Of a DNA stretch of 64,000 nucleotides, positions 30,093 through 61,467 are shown in pieces. A model generated the notes under the pieces. That model made no database searches and was not told the DNA's origin. It saw only the letters and a program-made list of their open reading frames with translations. This DNA comes from a virus. The stretch's first letter is position 1; each line of letters opens with the position of its first letter. The stretch spans positions 1-64,000 of IMG/VR virus record IMGVR_UViG_3300045988_179398, one strand, 5' to 3'. A program made the translations under genes and the position numbers.

Positions 30093-31187
30093 ATGTTAAA
30101 GATGTTTAATTATAAGAAATCTGACGTCGCCCTTTTTAATGATGTTGTAGACGGTATCGTTGATTCCGCTCGTCAAAGCATCGAAGGCGTTCAGAACCGT
30201 AAAGAATACGATGAAATGCAGGATGTAGTTTGCGAAAACCTCGTTAAATACTGCGTAAGCAATACTCGTTATGAGAACAGATTTGAAGCGGAAGGTCTTG
30301 ACCTTATAAAGAACCCCGCTGTTAACGGAAGCAGAGATTTCAGAGAAAACTTCGACGCGGTTATTGCGCAGGTTATCAACGCGACTCTTCCGATGACGAT
30401 GAGCTCGAGATTTGCTGATACGTTTATGGAACTTCATCACGTTGGTTGGGGCGACACCGCTCGTTTCATCGTTGATTCCAACGAACTTTATCAGGTAAAC
30501 GAACTTGCGGAAGGTATCCACCGTGGTGCCCTTCAGCACATTTACAACAACGAGATTTCGGTTAACCCGCAACCCGTTGAAATCGCTGTTTCGATCGACT
30601 GGTATCTTCTCGCTTCGAGAAAATTTGATATCGGTGTTTGGGCTGCGAAGATCGCTCGTTCGTTCGAAAACTACGTTCTTGCGAAAGCTATCGCTTCGCT
30701 CCTTTCTGTAACGGATGGACTTGGCGCTGGTTACACCACGAACGGTGTTGACGTTAAGAAATTCGGCACGCTTGCTCAGAGAGTATCTGTGGCTAACAAC
30801 GGCGCTGCTGTTTATGCTCTTGGTACTTCCGTTGCGCTTGCTTCGCTTATGCCCAACACGGTAGGCCTTCAGTATGGTCTTGGCGTTGAAATCACGAAGA
30901 ACGGCTTCCTTGACAGATATCTTGGAACCAACGTTATCGCGATTGATCAGGCTATCGATCCGTCGACCTTGAATTCGACCGCTAACCTTATGGTTCCCGA
31001 TGATAAGATTTTCCTTATCGCGGCTGGCGCGTACAAACCTCTCAAAGTTGTTATGGAAGGTAATGAAATCACCCTTACCGATATTCCCGAATACACCTCC
31101 GATAGAACTTACGTATTCTCCGTAAAAGTTCGTCTCGGAATAAAAGCGGTTCTTGGCTCCAAGCATGGCGTTATCAACCTCGGTTAA
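30093..31187 (+). CDS. putative major capsid protein (364 aa)
   Basis: Position after scaffold, size, strong SD, and followed by a hairpin. The family was not verified from sequence. Confidence 0.6.
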   Translation: MLKMFNYKKSDVALFNDVVDGIVDSARQSIEGVQNRKEYDEMQDVVCENLVKYCVSNTRYENRFEAEGLDLIKNPAVNGSRDFRENFDAVIAQVINATLPMTMSSRFADTFMELHHVGWGDTARFIVDSNELYQVNELAEGIHRGALQHIYNNEISVNPQPVEIAVSIDWYLLASRKFDIGVWAAKIARSFENYVLAKAIASLLSVTDGLGAGYTTNGVDVKKFGTLAQRVSVANNGAAVYALGTSVALASLMPNTVGLQYGLGVEITKNGFLDRYLGTNVIAIDQAIDPSTLNSTANLMVPDDKIFLIAAGAYKPLKVVMEGNEITLTDIPEYTSDRTYVFSVKVRLGIKAVLGSKHGVINLG

Positions 31188-31368: not shown

Positions 31369-33297
31369 ATGAGAAATTTTTCGAAAGAAGAGTTATATGA
31401 ATTATATATAACTCAAAACAAATCAAAAAGAGAAGTAGCTGAAATATTGCATACTAACGAGAAAACTTTGGGCGATTATTTTAAAAAATATGGAATAAAA
31501 AAATCAAAAGAAGATGTCGTTAGAGCAAGAGAATTGACATGCTTGAAAAATTTTGGTTCAACAAACCAAATGAAAAATATTGAAATCGCGCAAGAACTTC
31601 GTTCCAAACAAATAGATAGTGGTAAAATTAAAGATATACCATACGAAGAGCTTTATGATGTTTTGGTTAATAAAAAAATGCTTGTAACCAATGCGGCGAA
31701 TTTTTTTCATACTTCAATAAGCACCATAAAGAGACTTGCAAAAGAAAACGGGATTGAAATTTGTAAAGAAGAATTAAAAGCCGTTGATAAAGACGAGTTG
31801 GAAAATTATTATATTACAGAAAAACATACTCGCGAAGAATGTGCAGAGTATTTTGGAGTATCTTATTCTCGTATTAAAACGTTTTTGAAAAAGTATAAAA
31901 TCGAAAAAAGTAAAGATGAGATTTTTGAAAACATTAAACGTGGGCATAAGCGTAAAACTGGATATGAATATGCTTTGCAAAACCCCGAATCGATAAAAAA
32001 ACAAAAGGCTACTTATAAAAATAGAACCGAAGAGGAAAAGTCGGAGACGATTGAAAAACGCAAAAATACCTGTATGGATAGATTTGGTGCGAATAATCCC
32101 TTGCGTTCAGAAGATATAAAAGAAAAAGCGTTTGCTACTAATATAGAAAGATATGGATATAAAACATCAATTCAAAATCCAGAAATTCGTAAAAAAGCGG
32201 AAGATACTTTATTTGATCGGTTTGGAGTCAGGAACCCGTCTTTAGTTCCCGAGTTTAAACAAAAAAGAGAAAACACCATGCGAGAAAGATTTGGTGTTTG
32301 TAATTACGGAGAGATTGTCTTATCGGAAGATATTAGGAATTTACTTAACGATAAAGATAAATTCAAAAAATATGTTTTAGATAATAAGTTATCGACGACG
32401 TATGATATTGCGGAAAGTATAGGATGTTCAATTACAACTATTACAAACAGAATTCACGAATATAATTTAGAAGATTTGGTGAATAGGTCACAATCGCATT
32501 TTGAGACGGAAGTCAATCGTATTCTGACCGATTGGAATGTTAGACATTATAAAACAAGACAAATTTTAAGCAGTAAGCAAGAAATAGATTTTTATTGTCC
32601 GAATGAAGCGGTTGGTTTTGAATTTAATGGTAACTGGCCTCATTGTTCGATTAATAAAGATAAAAAATACCACATGGACAAATCATTGGAAGCGCAAGAA
32701 AAGAATGTAAGATTTGTCCACATATATGAATACGAATGGTGTAATCCTCAAAAACAGCCAATAATATTATCTTTAATGCGTGGAGCGCTTGGTCTTTTTG
32801 ATAAAAAAATATATGCAAGGAATTGTAAAATAAAAGAGGTTGGGACAAAAGAGTATTTCGACTTCTGTAATCAAAATCATACACAGGGTTATAGGCAAGC
32901 AAGGATTATTTATGGGCTTTATTTCAATGATGAATTAGTTCAGATAATGAGTTTTTCTCATAATGATAAATATGAATGGGAGATAATTCGTGAATGTTCT
33001 AAAATTAATACTCAAGTAATTGGCGGTAACTCAAAGCTGTTTAAATATTTTATAAAAACGCAAAATCCAAACAGTATTTTTAGTTATTGCGATTTTAATA
33101 AATTTAATGGCAAAGGCTATGAGTTATTGGGTATGAAATTTATAGGATATACTGGTCCAGATATGAAATGGTATTTGAAAGGCAATATAGTTATAAATAG
33201 AAGTCCAAGTAAAAACAAAGAACTCAAAGAAAAAGCTATTGCCCAAATTTGGGGCGCTGGTTCTAAAAAGTATTTGTGGATAAAACCGCAAGAATAA
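31369..33297 (+). CDS. multi-HTH protein with PD-(D/E)XK nuclease core and extra C-terminal domain (homing-endonuclease-like), paralog B
   Basis: Three N-terminal units like those of ORF 19874. Repeated ...RFG..NP... modules. ETEVNRIL...QEIDFYCPNEAVGFEFNGNWPH. C-terminal KIYARNCKIKEVGTKEYFDFCNQNHTQGY domain. Confidence 0.65.
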   Translation: MRNFSKEELYELYITQNKSKREVAEILHTNEKTLGDYFKKYGIKKSKEDVVRARELTCLKNFGSTNQMKNIEIAQELRSKQIDSGKIKDIPYEELYDVLVNKKMLVTNAANFFHTSISTIKRLAKENGIEICKEELKAVDKDELENYYITEKHTREECAEYFGVSYSRIKTFLKKYKIEKSKDEIFENIKRGHKRKTGYEYALQNPESIKKQKATYKNRTEEEKSETIEKRKNTCMDRFGANNPLRSEDIKEKAFATNIERYGYKTSIQNPEIRKKAEDTLFDRFGVRNPSLVPEFKQKRENTMRERFGVCNYGEIVLSEDIRNLLNDKDKFKKYVLDNKLSTTYDIAESIGCSITTITNRIHEYNLEDLVNRSQSHFETEVNRILTDWNVRHYKTRQILSSKQEIDFYCPNEAVGFEFNGNWPHCSINKDKKYHMDKSLEAQEKNVRFVHIYEYEWCNPQKQPIILSLMRGALGLFDKKIYARNCKIKEVGTKEYFDFCNQNHTQGYRQARIIYGLYFNDELVQIMSFSHNDKYEWEIIRECSKINTQVIGGNSKLFKYFIKTQNPNSIFSYCDFNKFNGKGYELLGMKFIGYTGPDMKWYLKGNIVINRSPSKNKELKEKAIAQIWGAGSKKYLWIKPQE

Positions 33298-33358: not shown

Positions 33359-34051
33359 ATGACAACAACAACCAAAAAAGAAGCCATTGAAGAAGTGGTA
33401 AAAGAAACAAAACCCGCGGAAACCAAGGTAACAAAGAACGATAGTCTTGACACAAAAATGGCAAACTTGACTGACCTTATGTCACAGTTTGTTCAGGCGA
33501 TGATGGCAAATCAAGCTGCTCGCACAGAGGTTAGAACGCCCGAAGACAAAATTGTAATTGTTCATTTGGCACAGACCGACCCCCAACTTGGAACCACAAT
33601 TCACCTTTCCAACACAGAAATTGGAATGACCGAATTCGGCGAAGAAAGACAGCTTACGATACAGCAGTTCGAAGAATTGCTTTCGAAATACAGAAGCTGG
33701 TTTGCTAAGGGACTTTTGTGTGTGGCGGACGGCTACGAAGAGGCGGCTAAAAAATATGGCGTAACAACTGCGGGTTCTTGTCCCATAGATAAAACGTTCA
33801 TAAAGGGTCTCGGAGATATACCGATGAGTAAAATCGAAGAGGTTTACGCTAGACTTCCAGAATACGGAAAAGAGAACCTTGTAAGTTACTGGATTAGGTG
33901 TGCTTATGACGGAAATCCGAAATTCACCGATATGCGTAAATTAAGACAGCTTAACGATATAACGGGCGGCAAGTTCGACAATGTAATTATCGAGTTTGAC
34001 GGAAGAAAAGATACGACCGAAATCAATAGACCAAACATTGTAAGATACTAA
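33359..34051 (+). CDS. hypothetical structural-module protein (230 aa)
   Basis: Track ORF with AAAGGAG SD. Confidence 0.75.
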   Translation: MTTTTKKEAIEEVVKETKPAETKVTKNDSLDTKMANLTDLMSQFVQAMMANQAARTEVRTPEDKIVIVHLAQTDPQLGTTIHLSNTEIGMTEFGEERQLTIQQFEELLSKYRSWFAKGLLCVADGYEEAAKKYGVTTAGSCPIDKTFIKGLGDIPMSKIEEVYARLPEYGKENLVSYWIRCAYDGNPKFTDMRKLRQLNDITGGKFDNVIIEFDGRKDTTEINRPNIVRY

Positions 34052-47595: not shown

Positions 47596-48636
47596 ATGGC
47601 AAGAACGACGGTTTATAACGAAGATTTGTCAAAAGAATGGCAGGTCGTCAATCCAAAAAACCAAAAATTATTGCGGGAGTTTGTGCGTTATTGCGTCGCG
47701 AACGATAAAAGCCCGCACACTTGTAATCAATACGAATCGCAGCTCAAAATCTTTTTCTGCTGGAATTACAGAGAAAACGCCGACAAGTTTTTTATCGACG
47801 TTAAGAAGCGCGATTTGGTCAACTTTTTCGGCTGGGGGAGAGAAATCGGATGGAGCCCGTGTCGGCTCGCCTCTCTCCGCGCCGTGTTGAGCTCGTTCAG
47901 CAATTACATCGAACGAATACTCGACGAAGATTACCCCACGTTTAGGAATCTTGTAAAGGTTCTCGAGCCGATCCATCTCGAAGCCGTCCGCGAAAAGACG
48001 ATTATCGAGAAAGACGATATAATGGCGGGGATTGAGCGATTGGTCGCACTTGGCGAGTACCAATACGCGTGTTTTCTCTCGCTTCTCTTTTCATCTGGAA
48101 TGCGCAAGTCCGAAGCGGTGCAAATGAAGGTTTCGTTTTTCACGACCGAAAGACAAGATGCTCTCGGTGGGCTCGCTTATATGACCCCAAAAATCAGGAC
48201 GAAAGGACACGGAGCGCGGGGCAAACAAGTTCAAAGGTACGTTTTTAAGGAAACCTTTGACAAATACTTTGACTTATGGATGAAGGAGCGCGAAAAGCTT
48301 GGCGTGAAAACCGACGCGCTTTTTGTTATAAAAGGCGGGTATGAAGATTACCAACCCGCGAAATCGCAAAATTTCTCCCATTGGGCGCAGAAAATCGGCG
48401 AGCTGATAGGCGTTGAATCGTTATATTGCCACAGCCTGCGACACGCGTTCACCACGTACTTAAAGCGTAACGGAACGCCAACCGACGTGGTACAAAAACT
48501 CCAATCTTGGGGAAGTGCGGATATGGTTGCGAGATATGACGATCGAAGCGAAAGCGAAGAGTTGGACGAGTTCTTCTCGACGCTTTCTGGTGAAAAAACA
48601 ACGGTTAAGGAGGAATGTGATTTATGGCAGAAGTAA
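47596..48636 (+). CDS. tyrosine recombinase / phage integrase family
   Basis: SGMRKSE (Arg), TKGHGARGK, HSLRHAF (H-x-x-R), WGSADMVARY (W/H...Y), in canonical order. 346 aa. Confidence 0.8.
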   Translation: MARTTVYNEDLSKEWQVVNPKNQKLLREFVRYCVANDKSPHTCNQYESQLKIFFCWNYRENADKFFIDVKKRDLVNFFGWGREIGWSPCRLASLRAVLSSFSNYIERILDEDYPTFRNLVKVLEPIHLEAVREKTIIEKDDIMAGIERLVALGEYQYACFLSLLFSSGMRKSEAVQMKVSFFTTERQDALGGLAYMTPKIRTKGHGARGKQVQRYVFKETFDKYFDLWMKEREKLGVKTDALFVIKGGYEDYQPAKSQNFSHWAQKIGELIGVESLYCHSLRHAFTTYLKRNGTPTDVVQKLQSWGSADMVARYDDRSESEELDEFFSTLSGEKTTVKEECDLWQK

Positions 48637-50375: not shown

Positions 50376-53300
50376 ATGATAATGAATCGTGCTGAATTAG
50401 ATAAATATTTGGCTAATAATATAGTTTATACTGGCGAATATCTCGAAGCTATGTCTGCGAAAGACTTTGCAACTTTAAACGAAGCCGCGAAAAAGAAGGT
50501 TCAAGAAATGGCTAAGCGCGGAAGAGAAGAGAGTGCGATGAAAGGGTCTTTGGCGGATATGGAAGCAAAGGCTAAAAGTCTTGGATATGATGTTGCGTAC
50601 AATGTAAACAAAAAAACTAATGAAATAGAAGTCATCTTGGTTGAAAAAGGGCAAGATGTAAAGAAAAATTATGAAAAAGTTGCGGCTGAAGCACCGACCT
50701 TCAAACTTTCTATCGGCGAAGGAACTCGTGGCGGAAAGGGAAGAATGGCTGCGCCAAAATCTTACGCACCACACGTTAGCAAAAGCGGCAAAGGGACTGT
50801 TTTACTCACACAGGTGGAAGAAACTATAAATAGTGTTACTGACGCTTTGTCAAAGCTCGACAGCAGAAAAACAAGACCCGACAAAGGATATGTTAAACAT
50901 GAAGTGAAGAAAGCACAGCGGTTGGCAGAACAATCTATCGTTACGACCGAGGGCTATTCGGTTGTTGATGAAGATAAATTCATGGAAGAAATGAAAAGAG
51001 AAACCTCGAATGCAAGAGGACAATTTGTTCGAACTAGTATGAGAGTAGGCGGCTTAATTGGCGAAGTTATTAAAAAAAGCAATTTTACCAAAAATATAAC
51101 AGCTGCTCAGAGATTAACACAGGACGAACTTAAAGCTCTTAATCAAAAGGCGGACGCGGTTGTAACGAAATACCTTGCGATTTATGCACAAGAAGGAGAA
51201 AAAGCAGCCGATAATTATTTTAAAGCCACCAAGGTCTTAAAAGACGATTTTAAATTGAGTGAAGATGATATTAAAGCTCAATTAGAAGCGGTTAAATCTG
51301 GATTTGGTGACTTTTTATATTTGCCGTCTTCCTTTGGTTTGAGCGGTGATAACGCTTTAAATACGAAAAAATTTTCCTATGTAGGCGATAGAGATTTAGC
51401 ATTCCGTCCATCCACGAGAACTGGTAGACATACGTCGCAAACAAGGAATTATCTCGAACGTAGCCAAAGAGCAAAATCAAGAGTCAAAAAAAGAGCCACG
51501 GAACGTTTTATTCCTGATGTTGATAAAGCAGATACTTCTTATTATAAAGAAATGGGGCATCAATTATATAAGCGTGGCTTGGTTTCTGGTGGGACTAAGG
51601 ATGGGATTGAATATACTCCGCAGATGTTGGTCACTAAAGCATATGAAGATGCTGCGGCTGCTTATATTGAAGAGAAGGTAAAAAAACTCAAAGAGAGCAA
51701 AAAATATAATAAAGCTTCCGACGCTCGTAAAGCAAAAATGGAAGAAGAATTGCGAGATAATATTCAAAAATCGCTTCCGACGATAGCTCAACTTGGCATT
51801 ATGGAAGATGCTGGTTTAATGAGTGAATCCGCCGCTCGTGAATTCGAATCGAGCAGAATGGTGACGACGACTATTTCTGAAAATGAATACGACAAATTGC
51901 AAAAAGAAGCCAAAGAAAAATACGAAAAACTTTCTGAAAAAGCTAAGAAGGCTGTAAATTTATCGGATTTTACCGATCGATTTATCGCTAAAAAAGCACT
52001 TAAACGCAGTAAACTTTCTGACGTAGATATTTTTCGTAATGGAGCGGAGGGTGCTTTTTCTATATCTGCAACGGAAACAGTTGGTGGAAATAGAGCTAAA
52101 TTGCTTTCGAGATATACTGGCGCTCGTGAAACAGACGTTGCCGTTCCTGATTTTATTTTCAATAGGATGGCAAAAGAGCTTAAGATTGAAGGCGCCGACA
52201 TAATTAGTGCGGCGAAAAAGTTTAAAGCGGAGGAAATTCCTGGGTATTTTCAAGGATTATTAGGTGCTTCTATATCGCAACGAACAGCAGGCAAAAACCA
52301 AGATGAAATAGAAAAAACACTTAAAGATACGGTTGCCGCTTTAAATTCAATCGGCTTTAAAGCTTCACTTGGTGAGAATGGAGAAATTTTTATAGATAAT
52401 TCTGACGAAGCAGTGTCACAGATTAAGTGGGATAAAGCATTGGGTTATCTTGAAAGTCTCAATATTCTTAAGCAAATCGATGGCGGTTTTGAATTTGTAA
52501 ATCCAGCAACAATTATAGAAGATGTTATTAATCAAGCGGATACATACGATCCGTCGAAAAAGGTTAAAACAAGCCCAAAAGAGTATTCAAGTGTAAAACG
52601 TGATATCGCCGAGGCGATGGCTGCCTCTGGAGATAAGAGCAAATTCAAATCTTTGGCGGCAGATGTCGATAGAATGTATGATCCAACCACTGGAGCGTTC
52701 GGCGCCGAAGCCAAAAAGGCATCGGTTGACATAGATGCCATATTGAATAAAAAAACGGGGTCTATAGTAAAAACTTATCAAACGACCATAAGTGGGAAAG
52801 ACAGAATAAAAGACGTCACTTCTCTTAAGAGAAAAAGTTATAAAGGGAAGATGAAAAATAAAAAGGGTGCTCACTATATAATATCCGTTGGGCGTGGTTC
52901 TGGGTACACCATTGACGCCTCTCAGTTAGAAATGGCAGCAATCAATTATCAAGAGGCTGGCGGTTTGCTTACTCGTGAAGATTATGAAAACACAGTTCTT
53001 GGTACAATTAATAAAGTCAAGTCGGAAATACTCACGAATGATACAACTGCCTCGGTAGATGTCATGATCGATCCTGGCACTGATTTTGGATTTGGTATGT
53101 CGTTCGATGGAGAAAACGCCTCGGAAGGAGCAACTGGAAGATTTTTGGTTTTGCCAAATGTTGAAATAGACACTGTGCAAAAGGATGGCGAAACATTATA
53201 TAGTTTGCCAAGTTACAACAAAGAGATTCATTCTCTCATTGGTTCGATTAAATCGGGGCAAGGGGATAGCGGTAAAATAGCACAAGAGTTAAATAAGAAA

Positions 53301-56300
53301 ATGTTTGATGCCGCACATTCAAGCAAAGGGACGTTGTGGCAAAAGGCGCATACTAAGCGACAGGGCGGATCAACGAGTGGTCACATTACTGGCATATCTC
53401 AAGATGCGATTGATAAAGCGTTAGCTGAAGGCGATATCGAAAAAGCAAAGAGATTGGCTTCCGATATCTGGGTAAGCGAAAAAGCAATGATGGAAATGCT
53501 TTCCAGCAAAACCCCTTATACAAGCGCAGATGGTGTTTATAATGTTTCCGAACATCAAAATTTTTTAACAGAAGCGGTGAAGCACTTATATAAAGACGAA
53601 GCTGGTGGTATACTCGATGGTTTAAGTGGTTCCGATGACGAAAAAAATAAAATATTATCCAGAGCAATTGCTCAAAGAATAGCAGATGATAAATTTACTG
53701 GCGCAAAAGAAGGGTTGGCGGGCATAATGAACCGTTTCCCGTCGATTGCACAATTATCAGCTGTTTTCAGTAGTTACCATGTTTCTTCCCAATTACAAGG
53801 GAAAGATATAATGGTTGGTGCCGCAATTGCAAAATTTGTAAACGGCGACTATGACGGAGATACTTTGCAACTTGTATTGGGGTTGATGAGCAGCGGAAAA
53901 TCGTTTGAAGAAGCCGATGAAATGGTCGAAAGGCAGCGAGAGAAAAACCTTAATCTTTATAAACAGATGTTCTCGAAAGGAAAAGGTGAGCCGCTCGATA
54001 AAACTGTCGCAACTCTAACAGATGCGCAAAAATTATCAGACCCGAAATATATGGGATTGTCTGCGTTGGCGGCTAAATTCAATAAACCTTATACGGGAAT
54101 GTTTTCTAATATTTCCACGCGTATAAGAGAAGGGTTGAAATTTACTGGTTTTGATGTTATCGATGAGCAAGGCAATCCAAGAGAATTATCTTCGGTTAAT
54201 GATTATATCGACGTAATAAGAGGTAAATTAGTTGCTGGCGTTGGGCAAATATTGGAACAAGATAGTATTTCTTCTAAAAAGGTCGAAAAGCGTTTAGATG
54301 AAGCAAGGAAAGCGAAAGGAAGAGATTTAACATCCGAAGAAGAAGAGGCAGAGCAACTTAAAGTTTTGCAAGAGTTTGAAGATTTGTATAATATGATGAG
54401 GGATCCGAAATCCTCATATTCCGATATTATAGGAAGAATGTCCGAAATGGGATTATTCGGTTCAGACGTCACTCAAATTTCAAGCACTTTAAGCTCAAAT
54501 ATTTTAGGATTGTTAAAAGGCGTATCTGGCGAAGATAGAAATATAATTCTTTCGAGACTCGGAATTTCTGAAGACGATTTAACGAAAGGTGCTTTATCAT
54601 CAGATGTTTATAAAAATGCTGGGAATGCTTTGGAAAACCAACTTGTTGATCCAACCACAGGAAAGCGGCTCAAAATATTCGCAGGCGAGTATGGAACTGG
54701 TTTAGCAACCTCGAGATCTTTCACCCCTTATATGAAGCAGGATACCTATGAGCTTCTTAGGTTTTTAAAATCATTGGAAGATGTTAATAGCGTATTAAAA
54801 AAGACTGGCGAAATAATTGATGAAAATGGTAACAAATTCAATCAGTATGGTGAGAGAATTAAAGAAGCGAAATCTTCGTTGGCGGCAGAAGCAGGGCAAG
54901 AATCTGCAAAAGTTGTTATTGCTGCTAAAGAAGGAAAGACGATAGAAAGGAATGTTGATATTTACCAGAAATTATCTGAAAAATTAAAGACGGCTGGTAA
55001 TAATTATAACGAGATTAACCGTTTATCGACTTCTGAGCTAAAAAGCAGATTACTTCCTTACGGCGGAGAACAAACGACTGGAATCGACGAGAAAACTTTA
55101 AATAGCGTTTATCGAAAAATCAAAGCTGGCAAAACGTTTACAAAAGCAGAACTCGCTACGCAATTTGGTGTCGAGGACGAAAAGGCGTTAAACTCATTAT
55201 TCCTTGGTAATTTAAGTACCGTTCGTGGTAATTATATCCATAACTTATCGCAGGGAGATGTTAAAGGCGCAAGGAAAGAAAAACTGAAACTTCAAAAAAT
55301 GTTTGGAGTTTTGGGGTATTCAGATGAGCAAATCGCAAGCACGTTTGATACATATAAGGCTGGCGCCAAAAACGTAAAGGCTATAACTAAACAATACGGC
55401 AGGTCTTTGGGCTCAGAAATTCCTTTTATCGGAATGACGAGTGATGGGCAATACGTTGTCAATGCTCGAGGAGACGAATTTTTCGTTGGCGAGCGTGCAA
55501 ATCCGTTTTATGATAAAGACTTTAAAGATCCAAATCAAAAGAAGATGCAAAGGGTCTTTACCGCTGTTGATTATAAAACACATACAAGTGGGAAACTCGA
55601 AGACTCTGATATTGTTCAAGGTGTAATATACAAAACATTTCTTGAAGATTTACAGACACGTTTAAAGAGTATAAAAGGCGACGTAGATATTGATTCTTTC
55701 CGTGCCGAAGTTAGTAAAGGTATGAAATATACCTCGAAAACAGAAGAAAGAGAAGCTTTGCTTGCTAAAATTACACCAGATCTTATTAAAAACCTGAAAG
55801 AATCAGATGTTGTTCAAACAGAAATTATTGTTGTAAATCCCTCAACTGGTTCTGCTCAAGCATATTCCGTTGGGGCTGATAAAGATAAATTCAAAGTAGC
55901 ACGTGATATAATTCTTAGTGGCGATACTTCTCCTTTAACATCGGAAGAGAAGACTTCGGTAAAAAGCGTAGCGAAGAAAAGGACTGACGCAAGATACTTT
56001 AAACCAGGCGAACAACAAGAAGGGATTGGAAGTATAGAGGATAAACTCAAACAAAGTGGTGGTGTTACCGCTGAGCAAAAGAACGAATCTCAAAAAGAGT
56101 ATAACACTCTCGTTTCAGAAGAGTTTAAACTCAAAAAAGAAATCGCTGCTCTCGATAAAGAACGCTGGAAGTTGACCAATATTGAAGGCAAAAAGAGCAC
56201 CGACTATACAGTTCAAAATCTCGATGCGGAAAAACAATGGCGCCAAGACGAGTTAAAACGTATGCAAGATCGCAAAGCCGAACTTGAGGGTTTGGGTGCG

Positions 56301-56974
56301 GTTGAAAGTAAAGCGACAACGGCTTCGAATGAAGAAAAAATGACCGCGTATTTGACGCGATTAGGCGTCGGCGCAGATGGGAAAATGGCTTTAACACCCG
56401 AAGAACAGGCAGATTACTGGTCTCAATACGAGCGTGCGCTTGACAAACAGGCTCGCGCGGAAGAAGAGATTTTCGGTATTCGAAATAAAGCGCAGACAAG
56501 TTACGGAACAGAGAAAAACTTACTTTATCAAATTGCAGACGAGAAAGAAAAAGCGCTGGTAACGGATAAAGCAAATGTCGCAATGCTCGAAAAGATTGTT
56601 GGCAAACTTGATCCGACCCGTCTTGCGAACATCAAAGAACAGGTTGCACTTAACCAACAGCTTTATAAACTGCAAGCACTCAAACAAACCCGTGGCGCGA
56701 CCTCTATTTGGGACGTTATGGCGAACGATATTCGTCGTGCGACCATGCGTATTGCAGACTTCGGAATTGCTGCGAAGGTTTTAAACAAGATTCCGCAGGA
56801 TATACAGAAGGTAATTCAGTATACGAAAGAGTTAGACGCGGCGATGACGAATATCAGAATCGTTAGCGGAAAATCGATGGAAGAAGCGCAGGAATTTATG
56901 CGCGGATTACAACAAATAGCACAAAAAACAGGTACAACTTTAAGCGAGTTGGCGAGTGCTGCCAACGAGTGGCT
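50376..56974 (+). CDS. giant virion protein, exon 1 (aa 1-2199 plus 2 nt): RNAP beta-prime-like double-psi-barrel motif and start of the tape-measure core
   Basis: NRFPSIAQLSAVFSSYHVSSQLQGKDIMVGAAIAKFVNGDYDGD (nt 53730-53861). The C-terminal ...MTNIRIVSGKSMEEAQEFMRGLQQIAQKTGTTLSELASAANEWL is TP901-type TMP core. The apparent tail DDCLGHYKLL* is intron read-through. Confidence 0.75.
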
Positions 56975-57281
56975 TGACGATTGTCTGGGTCACTATAAAC
57001 TCCTTTAATTGCTGGAACCCCCTTAGAACCATATAGCTACAACATAACGATGAAATATGCGCAAGTGTGATAGTTGAAAATATATGGATTGGGAAATCAG
57101 CAGCCAAGCCTCGAATAGAGGAAGGTTCAACGAATATGTTCCACGAGTGTGGATAATGGGGAGCTCTACATAGAGAAATCTATGCGAAAGATATATTCTG
57201 AACTTCTGGGGAAACTCAGAGAAAATTCTATTATAGAATCTTTTAAATGATAAACTAAATTTAAAAGTAACACAATTACAG
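56975..57281 (+). ncRNA. group I self-splicing intron (IA-like, ORF-less, 307 nt)
   Basis: P1: exon AGUGGCU (56968-56974) pairs with GGUCACU (56988-56994), with a terminal U.G. P AAUUGCUGGAA (57007-17), Q AAUCAGCAGCC (57095-105), R GUUCAACGAAUAUG (57125-38), S AAGAUAUAUUC (57188-98). Ends in G57281. Splicing restores the frame. Confidence 0.85.
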
Positions 57282-60200
57282 ACAAGGTTATGAAAGCACT
57301 GAGGAGATAGAAGAACTTCTCGACGCTTCGACAAAATTAAGTAAGCTTGGTATGATACCCGCAAGCGAAAGCGTTAAACTCTTAACGTCGAGCTTAAAAG
57401 GTATGAAGTTATCCGCGAACGAAGCGATTTCCGTCGTTGATAAGTTGACAAAACTTGACATGAAGAGTGCTACGAGTGCGCAGGAACTCGCCCAAGCTTT
57501 AAGCAAGGTTGCAAACTCGGCGCGTCTCGCGAAAGTGTCTCAAGACGAAATTTTGGGTATTCTCAGTGTCGGTATTGAAACGACGCAACAGAGTGGTGAT
57601 GTTATCGGCACGGCTGTCAGAAGTCTTTTGGCAAGGTTCTCAAACGTTAAAGCTTCGAAATTTGGCGGAAGTGGAGAAGAAACCGAGGGAACGTTGAACG
57701 ATACGGAAGCCGTTCTTTCTAAGATTGGAATTCGTATAAGAAGTGCGTCGGGCGAAATGCGCTCGTTTATAGACGTTCTCGATGATGTCGCAGAAAAGTG
57801 GGATACTCTCGATGATGTTTCCCGTAATGCCATCAGTACCGCCATGGCAGGCACTAGACAAAAGGAGATCTTCGCATCAATCATTGAAAATTACGATCGC
57901 GTAAGAGAATTGATAAACGAATCTGCCAATGCCGCAGGAACCGCTGACGAGAAATACACCGCTTACATGGACTCTATGGAGGCGGCGACGAAGCGGCTCC
58001 AAAACGCGTGGGAAGGATTTACTCAATCGCTCGAAACGAGCACGGTAATGAAATCTATTACAAATACGGCTGCGTTTTTTGTCGAAAATGCTGATAAACT
58101 CAAGTATCTTGTGACTTATATAGCAGCCGCTGGTTCAGTAAAATTTTTTAACTTCTTGACCAACAAAGGCGAAACGGGCGGCTGGAAAGGTTTGGTTGCC
58201 AATATCCCGTTTGTAGGCAGAGGAACGAAGACTAACAATATCCTCGAAAGTATTGACAAAAAAGTCGGCAACATCGAGAGAGGTGTCGGAGCGGATTCGT
58301 TAGCAAATCAAACAAAGAATGGTGGTTTCTTTAAAAGGCTTGGCGGTTTCTTAAAAACTGGCTTTGGATTTGGGGATATTTATGATCCAGAAACTGGGAA
58401 GAGTATTTCTTATAGAGAAGCAAAGGCATATGGCAAACTTTTAAAATCGACTACTGGGGGGACCGCAGTAACCGATCCACAAATGAACCAATATGTAAAA
58501 CTCCTTAAACAGCGTAAAATCGGTAATGTCGCGATGGGTGCAACTTCTGCCGTTTTAACTAATCTGTTTACTACGAAACAAGTCGGCGGAAGCGGATTTG
58601 GGAAGCTGGTTAATACAACCAATCAAACCGTAGAAGAAACTACTGGCGATAAAATCGGGAGGACGGTTCTTTCTGGTGCCCTTGCTGGGCTCGGAGGATA
58701 CGTTTTAGGTCCTTTTGGAGCTATAATTGGGCAAACTCTAGGCGAAAATTTTGCAGGAATGTTCTCGACTTGGTTCCATCGTGACGAGCTTGCGATGAAG
58801 CAGCGCGTCGCTGAAGCCAAAGAGAATCTTGCAGCGCTGAAAAACTTGGATACGACCTTAGACAGTATAAATCTTGCAGAAGAAGGCAGCGCTGATGAGT
58901 TCGCGAATAAATTGAGAGATTATTTCACAGATAACCCCGATTTGTTCAAGCCCTTAATAGGATCATTAAACGATAGTAAAGCGATACAGGGAATAGATAG
59001 AATTTCTCAATTAGTGAACTTAGTTAAGAACAATAACACGGCCGACAACGAGAAGATTTTACAGGCGTTGAAAGTCGCTATTCCCAAAGGGAAAATCGGG
59101 GAGATATACGACTCTCAAGAAGAAGAACGCGCGAAAATTATAAAAGAAGAACAATCGGTTATTTATAGTGTTTCACAGTTACGTGATATTTTAGACCGTG
59201 TTAGTCAGGTCGATAAGAGTGTAGATTGGAGCCCCATAATAGGTGGAGATTGGGGCACCATAGAGGGAAGACTGGCCATTTTCGAAAAGCTCCGAGATAT
59301 AAATAGTGAAAATCTTAAGGATATTCTGCCTGATGAGTACATTGATTATTATATAAACAAAGTGAAACCCCTTGCTATAAAAATGCAAGCGCTGGATGAC
59401 GAGATTCTTACCCCGATTGCGCAATTCGGTTTTAATAAGTCTAATATTGCCAATCTTTCGGGGTATGAATTGACCGATCTCGGTGTTGAGGGGGCTGTCA
59501 AAAAGGTTGCAGATACACTGCAAGACGCGGGTTATAATGTCATGACTAACGGTCTGATACATAGGGATATATATGACCAGATTATGAATCAAATTAAAAA
59601 ATCTGATATATATAAGAGTTTGCAGTATGGTACAAAGACCATAGGGGAACTCGACCTAAACAAGGAACAAGATTTAAAGAGATTTGAACAGTTCGCTCAC
59701 GCGTTTGGTATTTCTATAGACAAAGCCGAAAAATTAAAAGAAGAATTCGGAGATTTATCTACTGCGATGGCTTATATGACGCCGCAAGAAGTGCTTGATT
59801 ATTATAATAATTTATCGTCCATATTCAACGATTTGGCTACTAACGCCGCAGTTTCGGCTGAAAACATCGAAAAAATATTAACCGACGAAAATTATAAGAG
59901 TCTTATTCCTTATTTAACCAAAGGGAACGAAGCACTTCAAGCCAACCTTTATAAAAGGTTGTTGGGCGGAGAGAAGGACTTTGTTTATGAGGCATCTTTA
60001 TTTTCTTCGTTAATGTCCAACAAGGATATTTTTGAGAGTTTCACAGATAAGCTCGAAGACGAAGGTTTGAAGAAGAGAATTAGCGAATTAGGCTACACGT
60101 CTTTCCAATCCATTATTTCTGCCGTTCAGGACGGGACCATTAAAGAGAGTGATGAAATTGTTCAAAAGGCAAAAGAAGAAATCGAAGCTTGGAACGTAGA

Positions 60201-61467
60201 ATACAAGAAAGACTTGGAGGGGACCAATAAACTTATTTCTTATCAAACGTCCCTTTTAGACAAACAAATCACTAACCTTAACGACCAAAAATCGGCGTTA
60301 AAAGATGTTAACAATGAGCGCGAAAAAGAGCTTAATCTCATAAAGGCGAGACAAGCACTTGAAGACGCACGGAAAGAAAAGAAGAGGGTTTATCGTGCGG
60401 GTGTCGGGTTTGTTATGGAAAGTAACGAAGAAGCAATAAATTCCGCTCAGAAAGCGCTCGACGATCTTGACGTTGAAAAGAGGCAGGAGGAAATCCAACT
60501 TCGAATAGACGCCCTACAGCAAGAAAAAGATATTCTAGAAAATTTGCCCAAAGAAGAAGAAATGGCGCAGCTTTCGAAGATATATGCTCAATGGGCTGGC
60601 GATGGCGAAGGCAGCATGAACTCTGTTTCCAAGGCAACCGCCGATTTGGTTGCAAAATACAAAGATTCAATCGGGGCGCTGGATGCTTATAAAAAGTTCG
60701 TCGATGAACTTAGGATTGAAAAGCCCAAAGATAATACCCCGCCGTCTTCCAACAACAACACTTTAGGTGCTCGACGTATCAATGTGGGTAGTATTGAGGG
60801 TGTAGATGACGATAAGTATAAGAAAAATTATAGGGGTTACGACGGGATGTCGATCACATTCGACGGAACAACGTATGAAGTGTTAACGTCGAATAAGAAA
60901 GATGATATTAGAGAGCAAGAATTTATCAAAGCCAAGTATAAAGAATTATATAAAAATCCCAAAACAGGAGAAGTTGACGATCCTAAAACAGGAGATGTCG
61001 TCTCCTATGGTGGGAACTATTATGTTTACCACGAAAGTAATACAACTTGGGAAAAAATTCTTAATGAAAGAGATGGCGAAGAGTTAATTAAAGCTTTCCG
61101 TGACAAGGGATATTCTTCTGGAACAACTTCCTTCCAAGGTGGCAGAGCTCTTGTCAATGAGCTCGGAACCGAGGCGGTCATTACTCCAGGCGGCACGCTT
61201 ACCGCGCTTCCTTCGAAGACGGGTATCGTCCCTGCGGACATAACCCGAAATGTTTGGGCACTCGGCGAAGTTGCTCCGACGCTGGTTGCGCAGCTTAGTT
61301 CGCTTAATCAAAAAGCGCTCACTGGCAACGCTGGAAACACGACTTATGAAGAAGGTCAATACATCGATAATCTTACCATGAACGTTTATCCGACAAAGGA
61401 TTACGATATGGATAAGTTGCTTTCCGAGGCGCGTGCCAAGGCGAAGCTCACAAGGCACAACAATTAA
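57282..61467 (+). CDS. giant virion protein, exon 2 (1,394 aa): rest of the tape-measure core and C-terminal region
   Basis: The frame is open from 57271. The junction CT|A gives ...ANEWL-QGYESTEEIEELLDASTKLSKLGMIPASESVKLLTSSLKGMK..., a continuous TMP core. The C-terminus has VNELGTEAVITPGGTLTALP, typical of TMP ends. Confidence 0.8.

Follow-up and report, generated by a model that had tools for sequence, protein, structure and literature searches.

Positions 56975 to 57281 of a 64,000-nucleotide (nt) stretch of viral DNA, taken as positions 1 to 64,000 of IMG/VR record IMGVR_UViG_3300045988_179398 and referred to below as the window, very probably form a functional group I intron that carries no open reading frame (ORF) of its own and interrupts the TP901-type core of a giant tail gene. 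The gene is predicted from its sequence to encode a tape measure protein preceded by an RNA-polymerase-like module. Related loci and proteins are given by L and P numbers where they need to be told apart.

A forward-strand ORF of 2,210 amino acids (aa; 50376..57008) ends in ...LSELASAANEWLDDCLGHYKLL within the TP901-type core, and from 57283 the tape measure frame picks up again in another frame as QGYESTEEIEELLDASTKLSKLGM..., which stays open to 61467; both had been noticed in a preliminary description of this DNA. When 56974 is joined to 57282, the result is 10,785 nt, or 3,595 codons, with the terminal stop as the sole stop and a spliced product of 3,594 aa, so the frame is restored exactly, as that description had stated. 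TIGR01760 gives one continuous match to the spliced product over profile positions 8-299 of 349 (107 bits, cut-off 28.8), as does PF10145 over positions 6-201 of 201 (110 bits, cut-off 33.2). Both matches straddle the gap, beginning in exon 1 and extending into exon 2 only after splicing. Searched alone, exon 1 had no Pfam or PHROG match, and exon 2 matched PF10145 only at profile positions 31-201, a match that, together with PHROG tape measure families, identifies it as tape measure sequence. The comparison with intron-less tape measure homologues that had been proposed as a check was run, and these homologues are uninterrupted across the site: in 106 phage records a single tblastn place spans at least 80% of a junction-spanning query, the alignment being ungapped at the junction in five of the 106, and an exhaustive HMMER search recovered uninterrupted full-length homologues of 3,643-4,310 aa. 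For annotation, ORFs 50376..57008 and 57352..61467 belong joined as a single 3,594-aa gene.

The sequence between the two exons resembles known group I introns. The Rfam model RF00028 (Intron_gpI) matches 56932-57221 on the forward strand at 47.2 bits, with E=6e-11 in a local search and E=7.1e-9 over the whole 64-kb window, where it is the only Rfam match under E-value reporting. The alignment spans model positions 1-253 and places P3, P4, P5, P6, P8, P9 and the P, Q, R and S elements correctly; relative to the model, the window has 55 nt inserted in P5 and another 18 nt (P7.1) following P7, and P1 is wrongly set in the exon. The P, Q, R and S elements picked out by eye beforehand align to the Rfam consensus AAUUGCGGgAAA, AAuCCGCAGCC, GGUUCAaAGACUA and AAGAUAUAGUC, respectively. 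By blastn, 56990-57137 was linked to 165 phage records at 72-80% identity (E down to 7e-22), and the Rfam scores of these relatives lie at 72-93 bits. Identity of the core to phage introns in that range of scores, and to the ICP1 tape measure intron region, is 75-89%. A motif of the P5 extension is present in 38 viral contig stretches.

To assess the predicted structure, the helices of the window were mapped onto an alignment of the window with nine relatives (L013, L017, Str-PAP-1, Goe20, 2050HW, BpSp, LBC2, PMBT8 and ICP1), with controls in which one partner was slid by 1-3 columns and with 500 shuffles. In this alignment 92.5% of the cells are paired as against 30-45% in the slid controls, none of the 500 shuffles reaches any observed measure, and 20 of 39 pairs have changed on both sides. 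The thirteen helices (P1, P3, P4, P5, P5a, P6, P6a, P7, P7.1, P8, P9, P9.1 and P9.2) consist of standard pairs only, and an unconstrained minimum free energy fold recovers most of them (z=-3.0). P3, which is CUCCUU/GGGGAG in the window, appears in relatives as UUGAUU/GGUCAA, CUUGUC/GGCAAG or CUUACU/AGUAAG, and six of the seven P5a pairs show compensatory changes; the P5 extension is specific to the family. The complementarity of P4 (UGCUGG/UCAGCA) and of P7, pointed out in the preliminary description, stands in the covariation alignment. Within P7, A57130 pairs with U57199, C57131 is bulged and G57132 pairs with C57198; this last pair, kept in nine of the ten aligned sequences, is presumed by analogy to be the G-binding pair. 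The window has A57134-U57196 where most relatives have C-G, so that GAAUA/UAUUC corresponds to GACUA/UAGUC and, in ICP1, to GAUCA/UGAUC.

The intron is IA-like, without P2, with one P7.1 hairpin and with P9.1 and P9.2 extensions. The IA-like trait is a single 5-bp hairpin at 57140-53 between P7 and P3', where relatives carry one or two, and it includes the CCAC-GAGU-GUGG hairpin described beforehand as following P7 (57141-52). Both peripheral hairpins proposed earlier are present, although their coordinates had been placed one base off and are in fact 57225-57239 and 57240-57267. In L013 these stems are swapped for other hairpin-forming stems, which confirms that P9.1 and P9.2 are elements of the structure. 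As previously noted, G57281 is the terminal nucleotide. The stop that closes the exon-1 frame lies at the same place in all relatives (...YKLL, then stop). Coordinates of the gene and intron features are collected in the table.

Table. Features of the interrupted gene and of its putative intron (window coordinates).
Feature	Coordinates	Strand	Remarks
Exon 1	50376..56974	+	6,599 nt; 2,199 codons + 2 nt; RNA-polymerase-like N-terminal module, then first ~55 residues of TP901-type core
RNA-polymerase-like signature	53730-53885	+	residues ~1119-1170; wider module ~52473-54875
P1 5' strand AGUGGCU	56968..56974	+	last 7 exon nt; U56974 is the 5' splice-site U
Putative group I intron	56975..57281	+	307 nt with canonical boundaries; no ORF; RF00028
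GUCUG	56983..56987	+	invariant in all 4 intron variants; adjoins 5' side of guide; complementary to CAG/AC 57279-83
Internal guide sequence GGUCACU (P1 3' strand)	56988..56994	+	compensatory changes at 56989 and 56993
P3 5' strand CUCCUU	57000..57005	+	pairs with GGGGAG 57158-57163; 3/6 pairs changed on both sides; 100% of cells paired
UAA stop of exon-1 frame	57006..57008	+	in J3/4, right after P3; closes 11-residue read-through tail DDCLGHYKLL
P4-P5 domain	57009..57103	+	P4 57009-15/57097-103; P5 57018-20/57091-93; P5a 57029-35/57081-87; P5 extension 57036-57080
P6 and P6a	57104..57125	+	P6 57104-05/57124-25; P6a 57109-12/57118-21; 4/4 P6a pairs covary
P7 5' strand A-(C bulge)-GAAUAU	57130..57137	+	pairs with AUAUUCU 57193-57199
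P7.1-like hairpin UCCAC-GAGU-GUGGA	57140..57153	+	between P7 and P3'; insertion relative to Rfam consensus exactly there
P8 hairpin CAUAGA-GAAA-UCUAUG	57169..57184	+	from Rfam alignment and fold
P9 hairpin, GAAA loop	57204..57221	+	changes at 57206/57209 in L013/L017 keep pairing
P9.1 hairpin AUUCUA-UUA-UAGAAU	57225..57239	+	loop position 57231/57232 is the endonuclease-gene insertion point in siblings
Sequence matching 3' end of L017 intron ORF	57232..57250	+	..T ATA GAA TCT TTT AAA TGA, ..IESFK then stop; last six codons + stop retained
P9.2 hairpin, 9-bp stem CUUUUAAAU/AUUUAAAAG	57240..57267	+	in L013, hairpin of unrelated sequence AUAACAAA/UUUGUUAU at same place
3' tail UAACACAAUUACAG	57268..57281	+	the same in the ORF-less form and the two ORF-bearing ones; ends in G57281, the canonical terminal G
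Exon 2	57282..61467	+	4,186 nt; 1,394 codons + stop; remainder of tape measure protein

A search with the junction-spanning peptide returned five metagenomic proteins, all of which stop at one and the same position, with the tails DDCLGHYKLL, DNCLGHYKLL or NKSLGQYKLL. The complete 307-nt copy in L009 differs from the window at only nine of 307 positions (97% identity), and these changes keep the pairing; in the flanks, identity is 51% over the last 120 nt of exon 1 and 62% over the first 120 nt of exon 2. P1 was described beforehand as AGUGGCU paired with GGUCACU, and it is indeed a 7-bp helix of standard pairs with a U56974.G56988 wobble at the 5' splice site. Two changes in siblings preserve it: in L009 and L010, exon position 56969 is C instead of G and guide position 56993 is G (G-C to C-G), while in L015 and L017 from IMG/VR, exon position 56973 is G instead of C and guide position 56989 is C (C-G to G-C). 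These two independent compensatory changes indicate that P1 pairing is under selection, which would mean that the intron splices in this lineage. Its near-identity in exon contexts that are 40-50% different suggests recent lateral movement, plausibly by recombination or through sibling endonucleases acting in trans during co-infection. A homologue of 29% identity from a far more distant lineage, P0014 (2,022 aa), ends in ...AESANTWLNLI, cut at the same W-L position as exon 1 of the window, which suggests that this insertion site has been used independently or since ancient times.

The observed architecture, P1 specificity, exon continuity and presence or absence of endonuclease genes can be read onto the general group I pathway, from which we infer the chemistry, the G-binding role, the interplay with translation and the mode of spread. 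The last seven bases of exon 1 would pair with the guide GGUCACU to form P1, and an external guanosine held at G57132-C57198 of P7 would attack after U56974. The terminal G57281 would take the G site next, and exon 1 would be ligated to A57282, giving ...GAGUGGCU/ACAAGGUUAUG... and with it the 3,594-aa fusion of the RNA-polymerase-like module and the tape measure. Ribosomes entering unspliced RNA would halt at the UAA at 57006-08, directly past the 5' strand of P3 and just inside the core; since this stop holds the same position in all siblings, the catalytic core downstream would be expected to stay ribosome-free. The endonucleases of the siblings probably target the conserved 27-bp site of intron-less alleles, and the ORF-less copy would persist by vertical descent and possibly spread by recombination or with help in trans.

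Several points weigh against this interpretation, some concerning whether the element splices at all and others where it does so. The case for splicing is built on sequence rather than on RNA. At the gathering threshold of RF00028 (50 bits) nothing was reported for the 64-kb window, the copy there lying 2.8 bits short, so that the Rfam scan suggested in the preliminary description yielded a highly significant E-value but a score under the curated cut-off. Were the match due to chance, two separate genes would be divided here by an ordinary spacer or by some other structured RNA, as the lack of any hit at the gathering score might suggest; we give this virtually no credence, and regard it as effectively refuted by the E-value of 7e-9, the homology to bona fide introns, the covariation, the P1 swaps and the uninterrupted homologues, on which the identification as a group I intron made beforehand holds. 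The cut-off itself divides the subfamily: L009 scores 48.5 bits and L017, whose core is about 95% the same as that of the window, 53.1 bits, and the ICP1 relative scores 38.9 bits even though splicing of the ICP1 tape measure introns was demonstrated by reverse-transcription PCR (RT-PCR). The L017 core, moreover, attains its 53.1 bits when 361 nt are searched and goes unreported in searches of 5 kb (E<=0.01) and 25 kb (E<=1e-4), as does L013 in a 25-kb search. Because the Rfam filters miss these known copies, an absent Rfam match is weak evidence against introns of this subfamily; standard scans overlook them at the gathering threshold and, if the input is longer, with lenient E-values too. 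An intron that has decayed and no longer splices, leaving a 2,210-aa RNA-polymerase-like protein ending in DDCLGHYKLL and a tape measure fragment started internally, for example at M57352, is a more serious alternative but an unlikely one. The Rfam score just short of the cut-off and the derivation of the splicing from sequence would fit it, as would the missing endonuclease gene, which marks the stage of the homing cycle that precedes decay. Yet no core pair is broken, the nine differences from L009 keep the pairing, and the guide co-evolves with the exon in siblings, which places splicing under selection. The Pfam domain would be cut at about position 30 of 201 and exon 1 by itself would be unrecognisable as a tape measure, whereas exon 2 is open for 1,394 codons in the frame predicted by canonical splicing. 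A separate start at M57352 is disfavoured, since the ATG encodes an internal methionine of an LSKLGM motif that is kept in all uninterrupted homologues; no Shine-Dalgarno sequence was seen upstream of it.

The remaining objections concern the 3' splice site and a single arginine codon. Canonical rules (a U at -1 that pairs with G, G as the terminal nucleotide, an open frame and QGY retained) leave only 56974/57282, giving ...NEWL/QGYEST, and no G other than G57281 yields a junction that is in frame and free of stops with U at -1. The junction CT/ACAAGG put forward in the preliminary description is therefore the only one that meets the U and G rules and the frame, but it omits an arginine codon that every intron-less allele has: it reads WLQGY, and all intron-less alleles found (seven viral and five metagenomic loci, 10 representative proteins) read W[LAM]RQGY. 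At the DNA level, L012, L031 and L032 have TGG TTG AGA CAA GG, L028 has TGG TTG CGT CAA GG, and eight loci, four viral and four metagenomic (L023, L025, L029, L030, L033, L035, L043 and L053), have exactly AACGAGTGGCTTAGACAAGGTTATGAA (27 bp). The empty site GAGTGGCTTAGACAAGG equals the flanks of the window plus T56975, A57280 and G57281, so that relative to an empty site the insertion is exactly 56976-57279, 304 nt and not 307. Under the canonical junction, moreover, intron-bearing alleles are one residue shorter than their nearest intron-less relatives (L009 against L012, L017 against P0010), and neither IMG/VR nor the metagenome collection yielded an intron-less tape measure allele identical to the canonical ligated exons (TGGCTACAAGG), all matches to WLQGYE there being unrelated chance matches. 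P10 as usually drawn has only 2 bp and a 3-nt offset from P1, and the pairing of UUGU (56981-84) with ACAA proposed earlier has to be abandoned, the sequence being AAGU in L009 and AUGU in L017 with only 2 bp conserved.

These observations would be accounted for if the same intron were removed with the arginine kept, as CUU/AGACAAGG (removing 56976-57279) or CU/CAGACAAGG (removing 56975-57278), in either case 304 nt with C or A as the last nucleotide. GUCUG at 56983-87 and CAGAC at 57279-83 would then give a contiguous P1/P10, whereas the canonical junction leaves the 3-nt offset. We nevertheless consider this quite improbable, and still a little less probable the specific form in which the 3' splice site is set by a contiguous P10 (GUCUG/CAGAC) after a non-G terminal nucleotide, as CUU/AGA or CU/CAGA, with the arginine restored. 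A terminal G is, to our knowledge, universal in group I introns, and the G-binding pair of P7 looks standard here; inspection of the sequence shows that a short P9.0 can arise just before G57281 through pairing of C57279 and A57280 with G57200 and U57199. With the G taken as obligatory, T and A would agree with the empty site by accident about once in 16 cases. Pfam scoring does not favour the version with arginine (108.1 bits, against 110.4 bits without) and is non-discriminating. Our own reading is that splicing is canonical and that the arginine codon was lost at the original insertion, through one 3-nt loss or microhomology event, a change since carried along with the intron by co-conversion; this explains the data without new chemistry. 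The difference may be a small, deleterious change in the exon that hitch-hikes with a selfish element or, much less likely, may reflect an unusual choice of 3' splice site. As to GUCUG, it may act as a P1 extension, as P10 or in sequestering the 3' splice site.

Other ways of placing the ends were considered and set aside. A compensating one-residue insertion in exon 2 does not apply, as the 16- or 17-residue variation after QGY is independent of the intron and the intron-less L012 has both the arginine and the long form. Loss of the intron by deletion between the GAC repeats at 56976-78 and 57281-83 would leave GGCTTGACAAGG, and GGCTTAGACAAGG is observed. The junctions 56973/57287, 56974/57288 and 56977/57282 each lack the U.G pair or remove the conserved QG. 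Copies of the same subfamily elsewhere (38 viral stretches) did not define the ends, their homology being confined to P3-P7 (56997-57137) and in no case extending to the guide or the 3' tail. The two outcomes predict different products: canonical splicing would give a cDNA of GAGTGGCT joined to ACAAGGTTATG, or GAGTGGCTACAAGG, with the peptide ..NEWLQGYESTEE.. and the tryptic peptide ...TGTTLSELASAANEWLQGYESTEEIEELLDASTK, and splicing with the arginine kept would give a cDNA of GAGTGGCTTAGACAAGG or GAGTGGCTCAGACAAGG, that is GAGTGGCT(T/C)AGACAAGG, with the peptide QGYESTEEIEELLDASTK after ...NEWLR.

As the preliminary description had stated, the intron contains no homing endonuclease: the ORF list has no ORF within 56975-57281. 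Judging by its siblings, it is the ORF-less state of a homing intron that elsewhere carries either of two endonuclease genes in the P9.1 loop. L015 and L017 from IMG/VR have at the same site a 1,174-nt intron that equals that of the window plus 867 nt between 57231 and 57232, in the P9.1 triloop; the ORF in L017 encodes 288 aa, and the intron, over its last 50 nt, shows 100% identity to the window. L013, L014, L016 and L018 have a 1,574-nt intron with a different 393-aa ORF in the loop of a different 15-bp stem, this ORF having its own TTGACA-N17-TACAAT promoter and ribosome-binding site and being followed by a different P9.2 and then the shared 14-nt tail. Both ORFs match the PHROG 'homing endonuclease' families 12131/3339 and DUF7487, are 27% identical to each other and gave no match in PDB sequence searches. 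The L013 ORF has weak C-terminal signals of restriction-endonuclease-like domains, DUF559 (E=0.002) and MTES_1575 (E=0.0018), and alongside these weak Pfam signals the motif-like strings EYDGSGHD and EYDGWYWH in the sibling ORFs were noted for comparison with EDxHD/Vsr-like enzymes (I-Bth0305I). The 57232..57250 segment in the window is either what is left of an endonuclease gene that was lost or the landing pad at which one was gained; likewise, either the ORF was lost or an ORF-less ancestor was invaded twice. Together with its metagenomic siblings the locus offers a natural series at one site, which includes the site without intron, the intron without ORF, the intron bearing either of two different endonuclease genes in its P9.1 loop, and a guide that tracks the exon; the series illustrates the cycle of gain and loss of homing endonuclease genes.

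The window holds an endonuclease-like gene of its own at 31369-33297 on the forward strand, encoding 642 aa (PHROG 3339, E=8.5e-86; also PHROG 559, 'HNH endonuclease'). It belongs to the same broad family as the sibling-intron ORFs and is apparently free-standing in the head module, between 30093..31187 and 33359..34051; Rfam gave no intron signal around it in the 64-kb window. As a trans-acting partner of the intron it was dismissed, being only 26-27% identical to the sibling ORFs, over a repeat region, with nothing that links the two.

That group I introns occur in tape measure genes is established from Bacillus cereus prophages and ICP1, and the intron described here adds one more. In prophages of the B. 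cereus group, TMP-IVS1/2/3 occupy three sites, are of type IA1 or IA2, are in some cases ORF-less and show guide adaptation (Tourasse & Kolsto 2008, PMC2504315). They are IA-type and, like the IA-like intron in the window, lie in conserved tape measure stretches and in some cases lack a complete endonuclease gene; the P3-P7 core is conserved, P1 and the guide are adapted to the site, and the same ORF-less intron occurs in different phages. The host gene in the window differs in being far larger, at 3,594 aa and with an RNA-polymerase-like N-terminal module, and in its family one ORF-less and two ORF-bearing states are found at a single site. Barth et al. 2023 (PMC10448857) describe the tape measure gene as 'frequently interrupted' and report three ICP1 introns as spliced, by RNA-seq and RT-PCR; the endonuclease content varies among ICP1 isolates while the junctions are fixed, and the endonucleases are about 30% identical to each other. 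The core in the window is about 76% identical over 140 nt to the ICP1 sequence between ORF80 and ORF79. The ICP1 endonucleases, however, are of the HNH-3 type and those of the siblings here belong to DUF7487 and PHROG 12131/3339, and the tape measure family and insertion site differ as well. Spliced introns are also found in capsid and tail genes of cluster J mycobacteriophages. An intron within the lysin gene carried by Streptococcus thermophilus phages, reportedly described by Foley et al. in 2000, is said to occur at the same site in related phages either with an ORF or as shorter ORF-less deletion derivatives; the host gene is different, and the occurrence of ORF-bearing and ORF-less states is common to both cases.

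Streptococcus phage Str-PAP-1 (NC_028666; L001 3518-7365) has two coding sequences annotated as 'tail length tape measure protein', which are separated by two endonuclease genes. The intron there is unannotated; it begins exactly at the end of the first tape measure fragment, scores 82 bits in Rfam and has a core 78% identical to that in the window. It does not represent the same homing site, as both the tape measure family and the site differ (..NSNKMG/ as against ..NEWL/).

The host gene is unusual in its own right. Exon 1 contains MNRFPSIAQLS..(29 aa)..NGDYDGDTLQLVLGL, with the NRFPS...NGDYDGD signature of a beta'/Rpb1-type catalytic barrel, and N[AG]D[FY]DGD is kept without exception by the 17 representative homologues (2,000-4,300 aa) whose sequence covers it. 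A 12-sequence profile of this segment matched only RNA-polymerase largest subunits in the PDB, namely phiKZ PHIKZ055 (E=1.1e-8), vaccinia Rpo147 (E=8.9e-6), a phage RNA polymerase beta' (7s01; E=1.9e-4), an RPB1 homologue (8q3b; E=2.5e-4) and archaeal Rpo1N (E=0.005), and all of these align on the NRxPS...NADFDGD barrel. From these matches the gene appears to encode a tape-measure-fused RNA polymerase like gp96 of Thermus phage P23-45, for which this fusion, a virion RNA polymerase, has been shown experimentally and reported for only four Thermus phages (Chaban et al. 2024, PMC10770324). Both are giant tape measure proteins with an N-terminal motif of the two-barrel RNA polymerase type, DFDGD in gp96 and N[AG]D[FY]DGD here. 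The PDB searches showed no sequence match to gp96, and the lineage therefore appears unrelated to P23-45; it differs further in that the phage is of low GC content and mesophile-like, in that the gene is split by an intron and in that a beta'-type barrel was detected, no search having been made for a beta-type barrel. With this gene, tape-measure-fused RNA-polymerase-like proteins would no longer be confined to Thermus phages. Unspliced RNA would code for nothing but the polymerase-like module, and any role for this truncated product is pure speculation; since intron-less relatives exist, the intron is not required.

A second position in the same gene seems to be interrupted in relatives. In L017 (10282-11533; IMGVR_UViG_3300045988_171725) and in P0010, exon 2 stops early at ...AFAGRMTYARNYGNIIC, about 190 aa past the first site, and in L017 the stop is followed by a further ORF of 380 aa, an arrangement that suggests the gene has a second site of interruption. 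Rfam gave no match in this region of L017, but its filters there also missed the known first intron. The window is uninterrupted at the corresponding position (..AMAGTRQKE..).

More broadly, the window covers a phage structural region that includes a portal gene, the free-standing homing-endonuclease gene, tail genes and an integrase-like ORF. The last of these, a tyrosine-integrase-like ORF at 47596-48636 on the forward strand (PHROG 1, E=4e-26), lies in the tail-gene region, two genes upstream of the giant tape measure gene.

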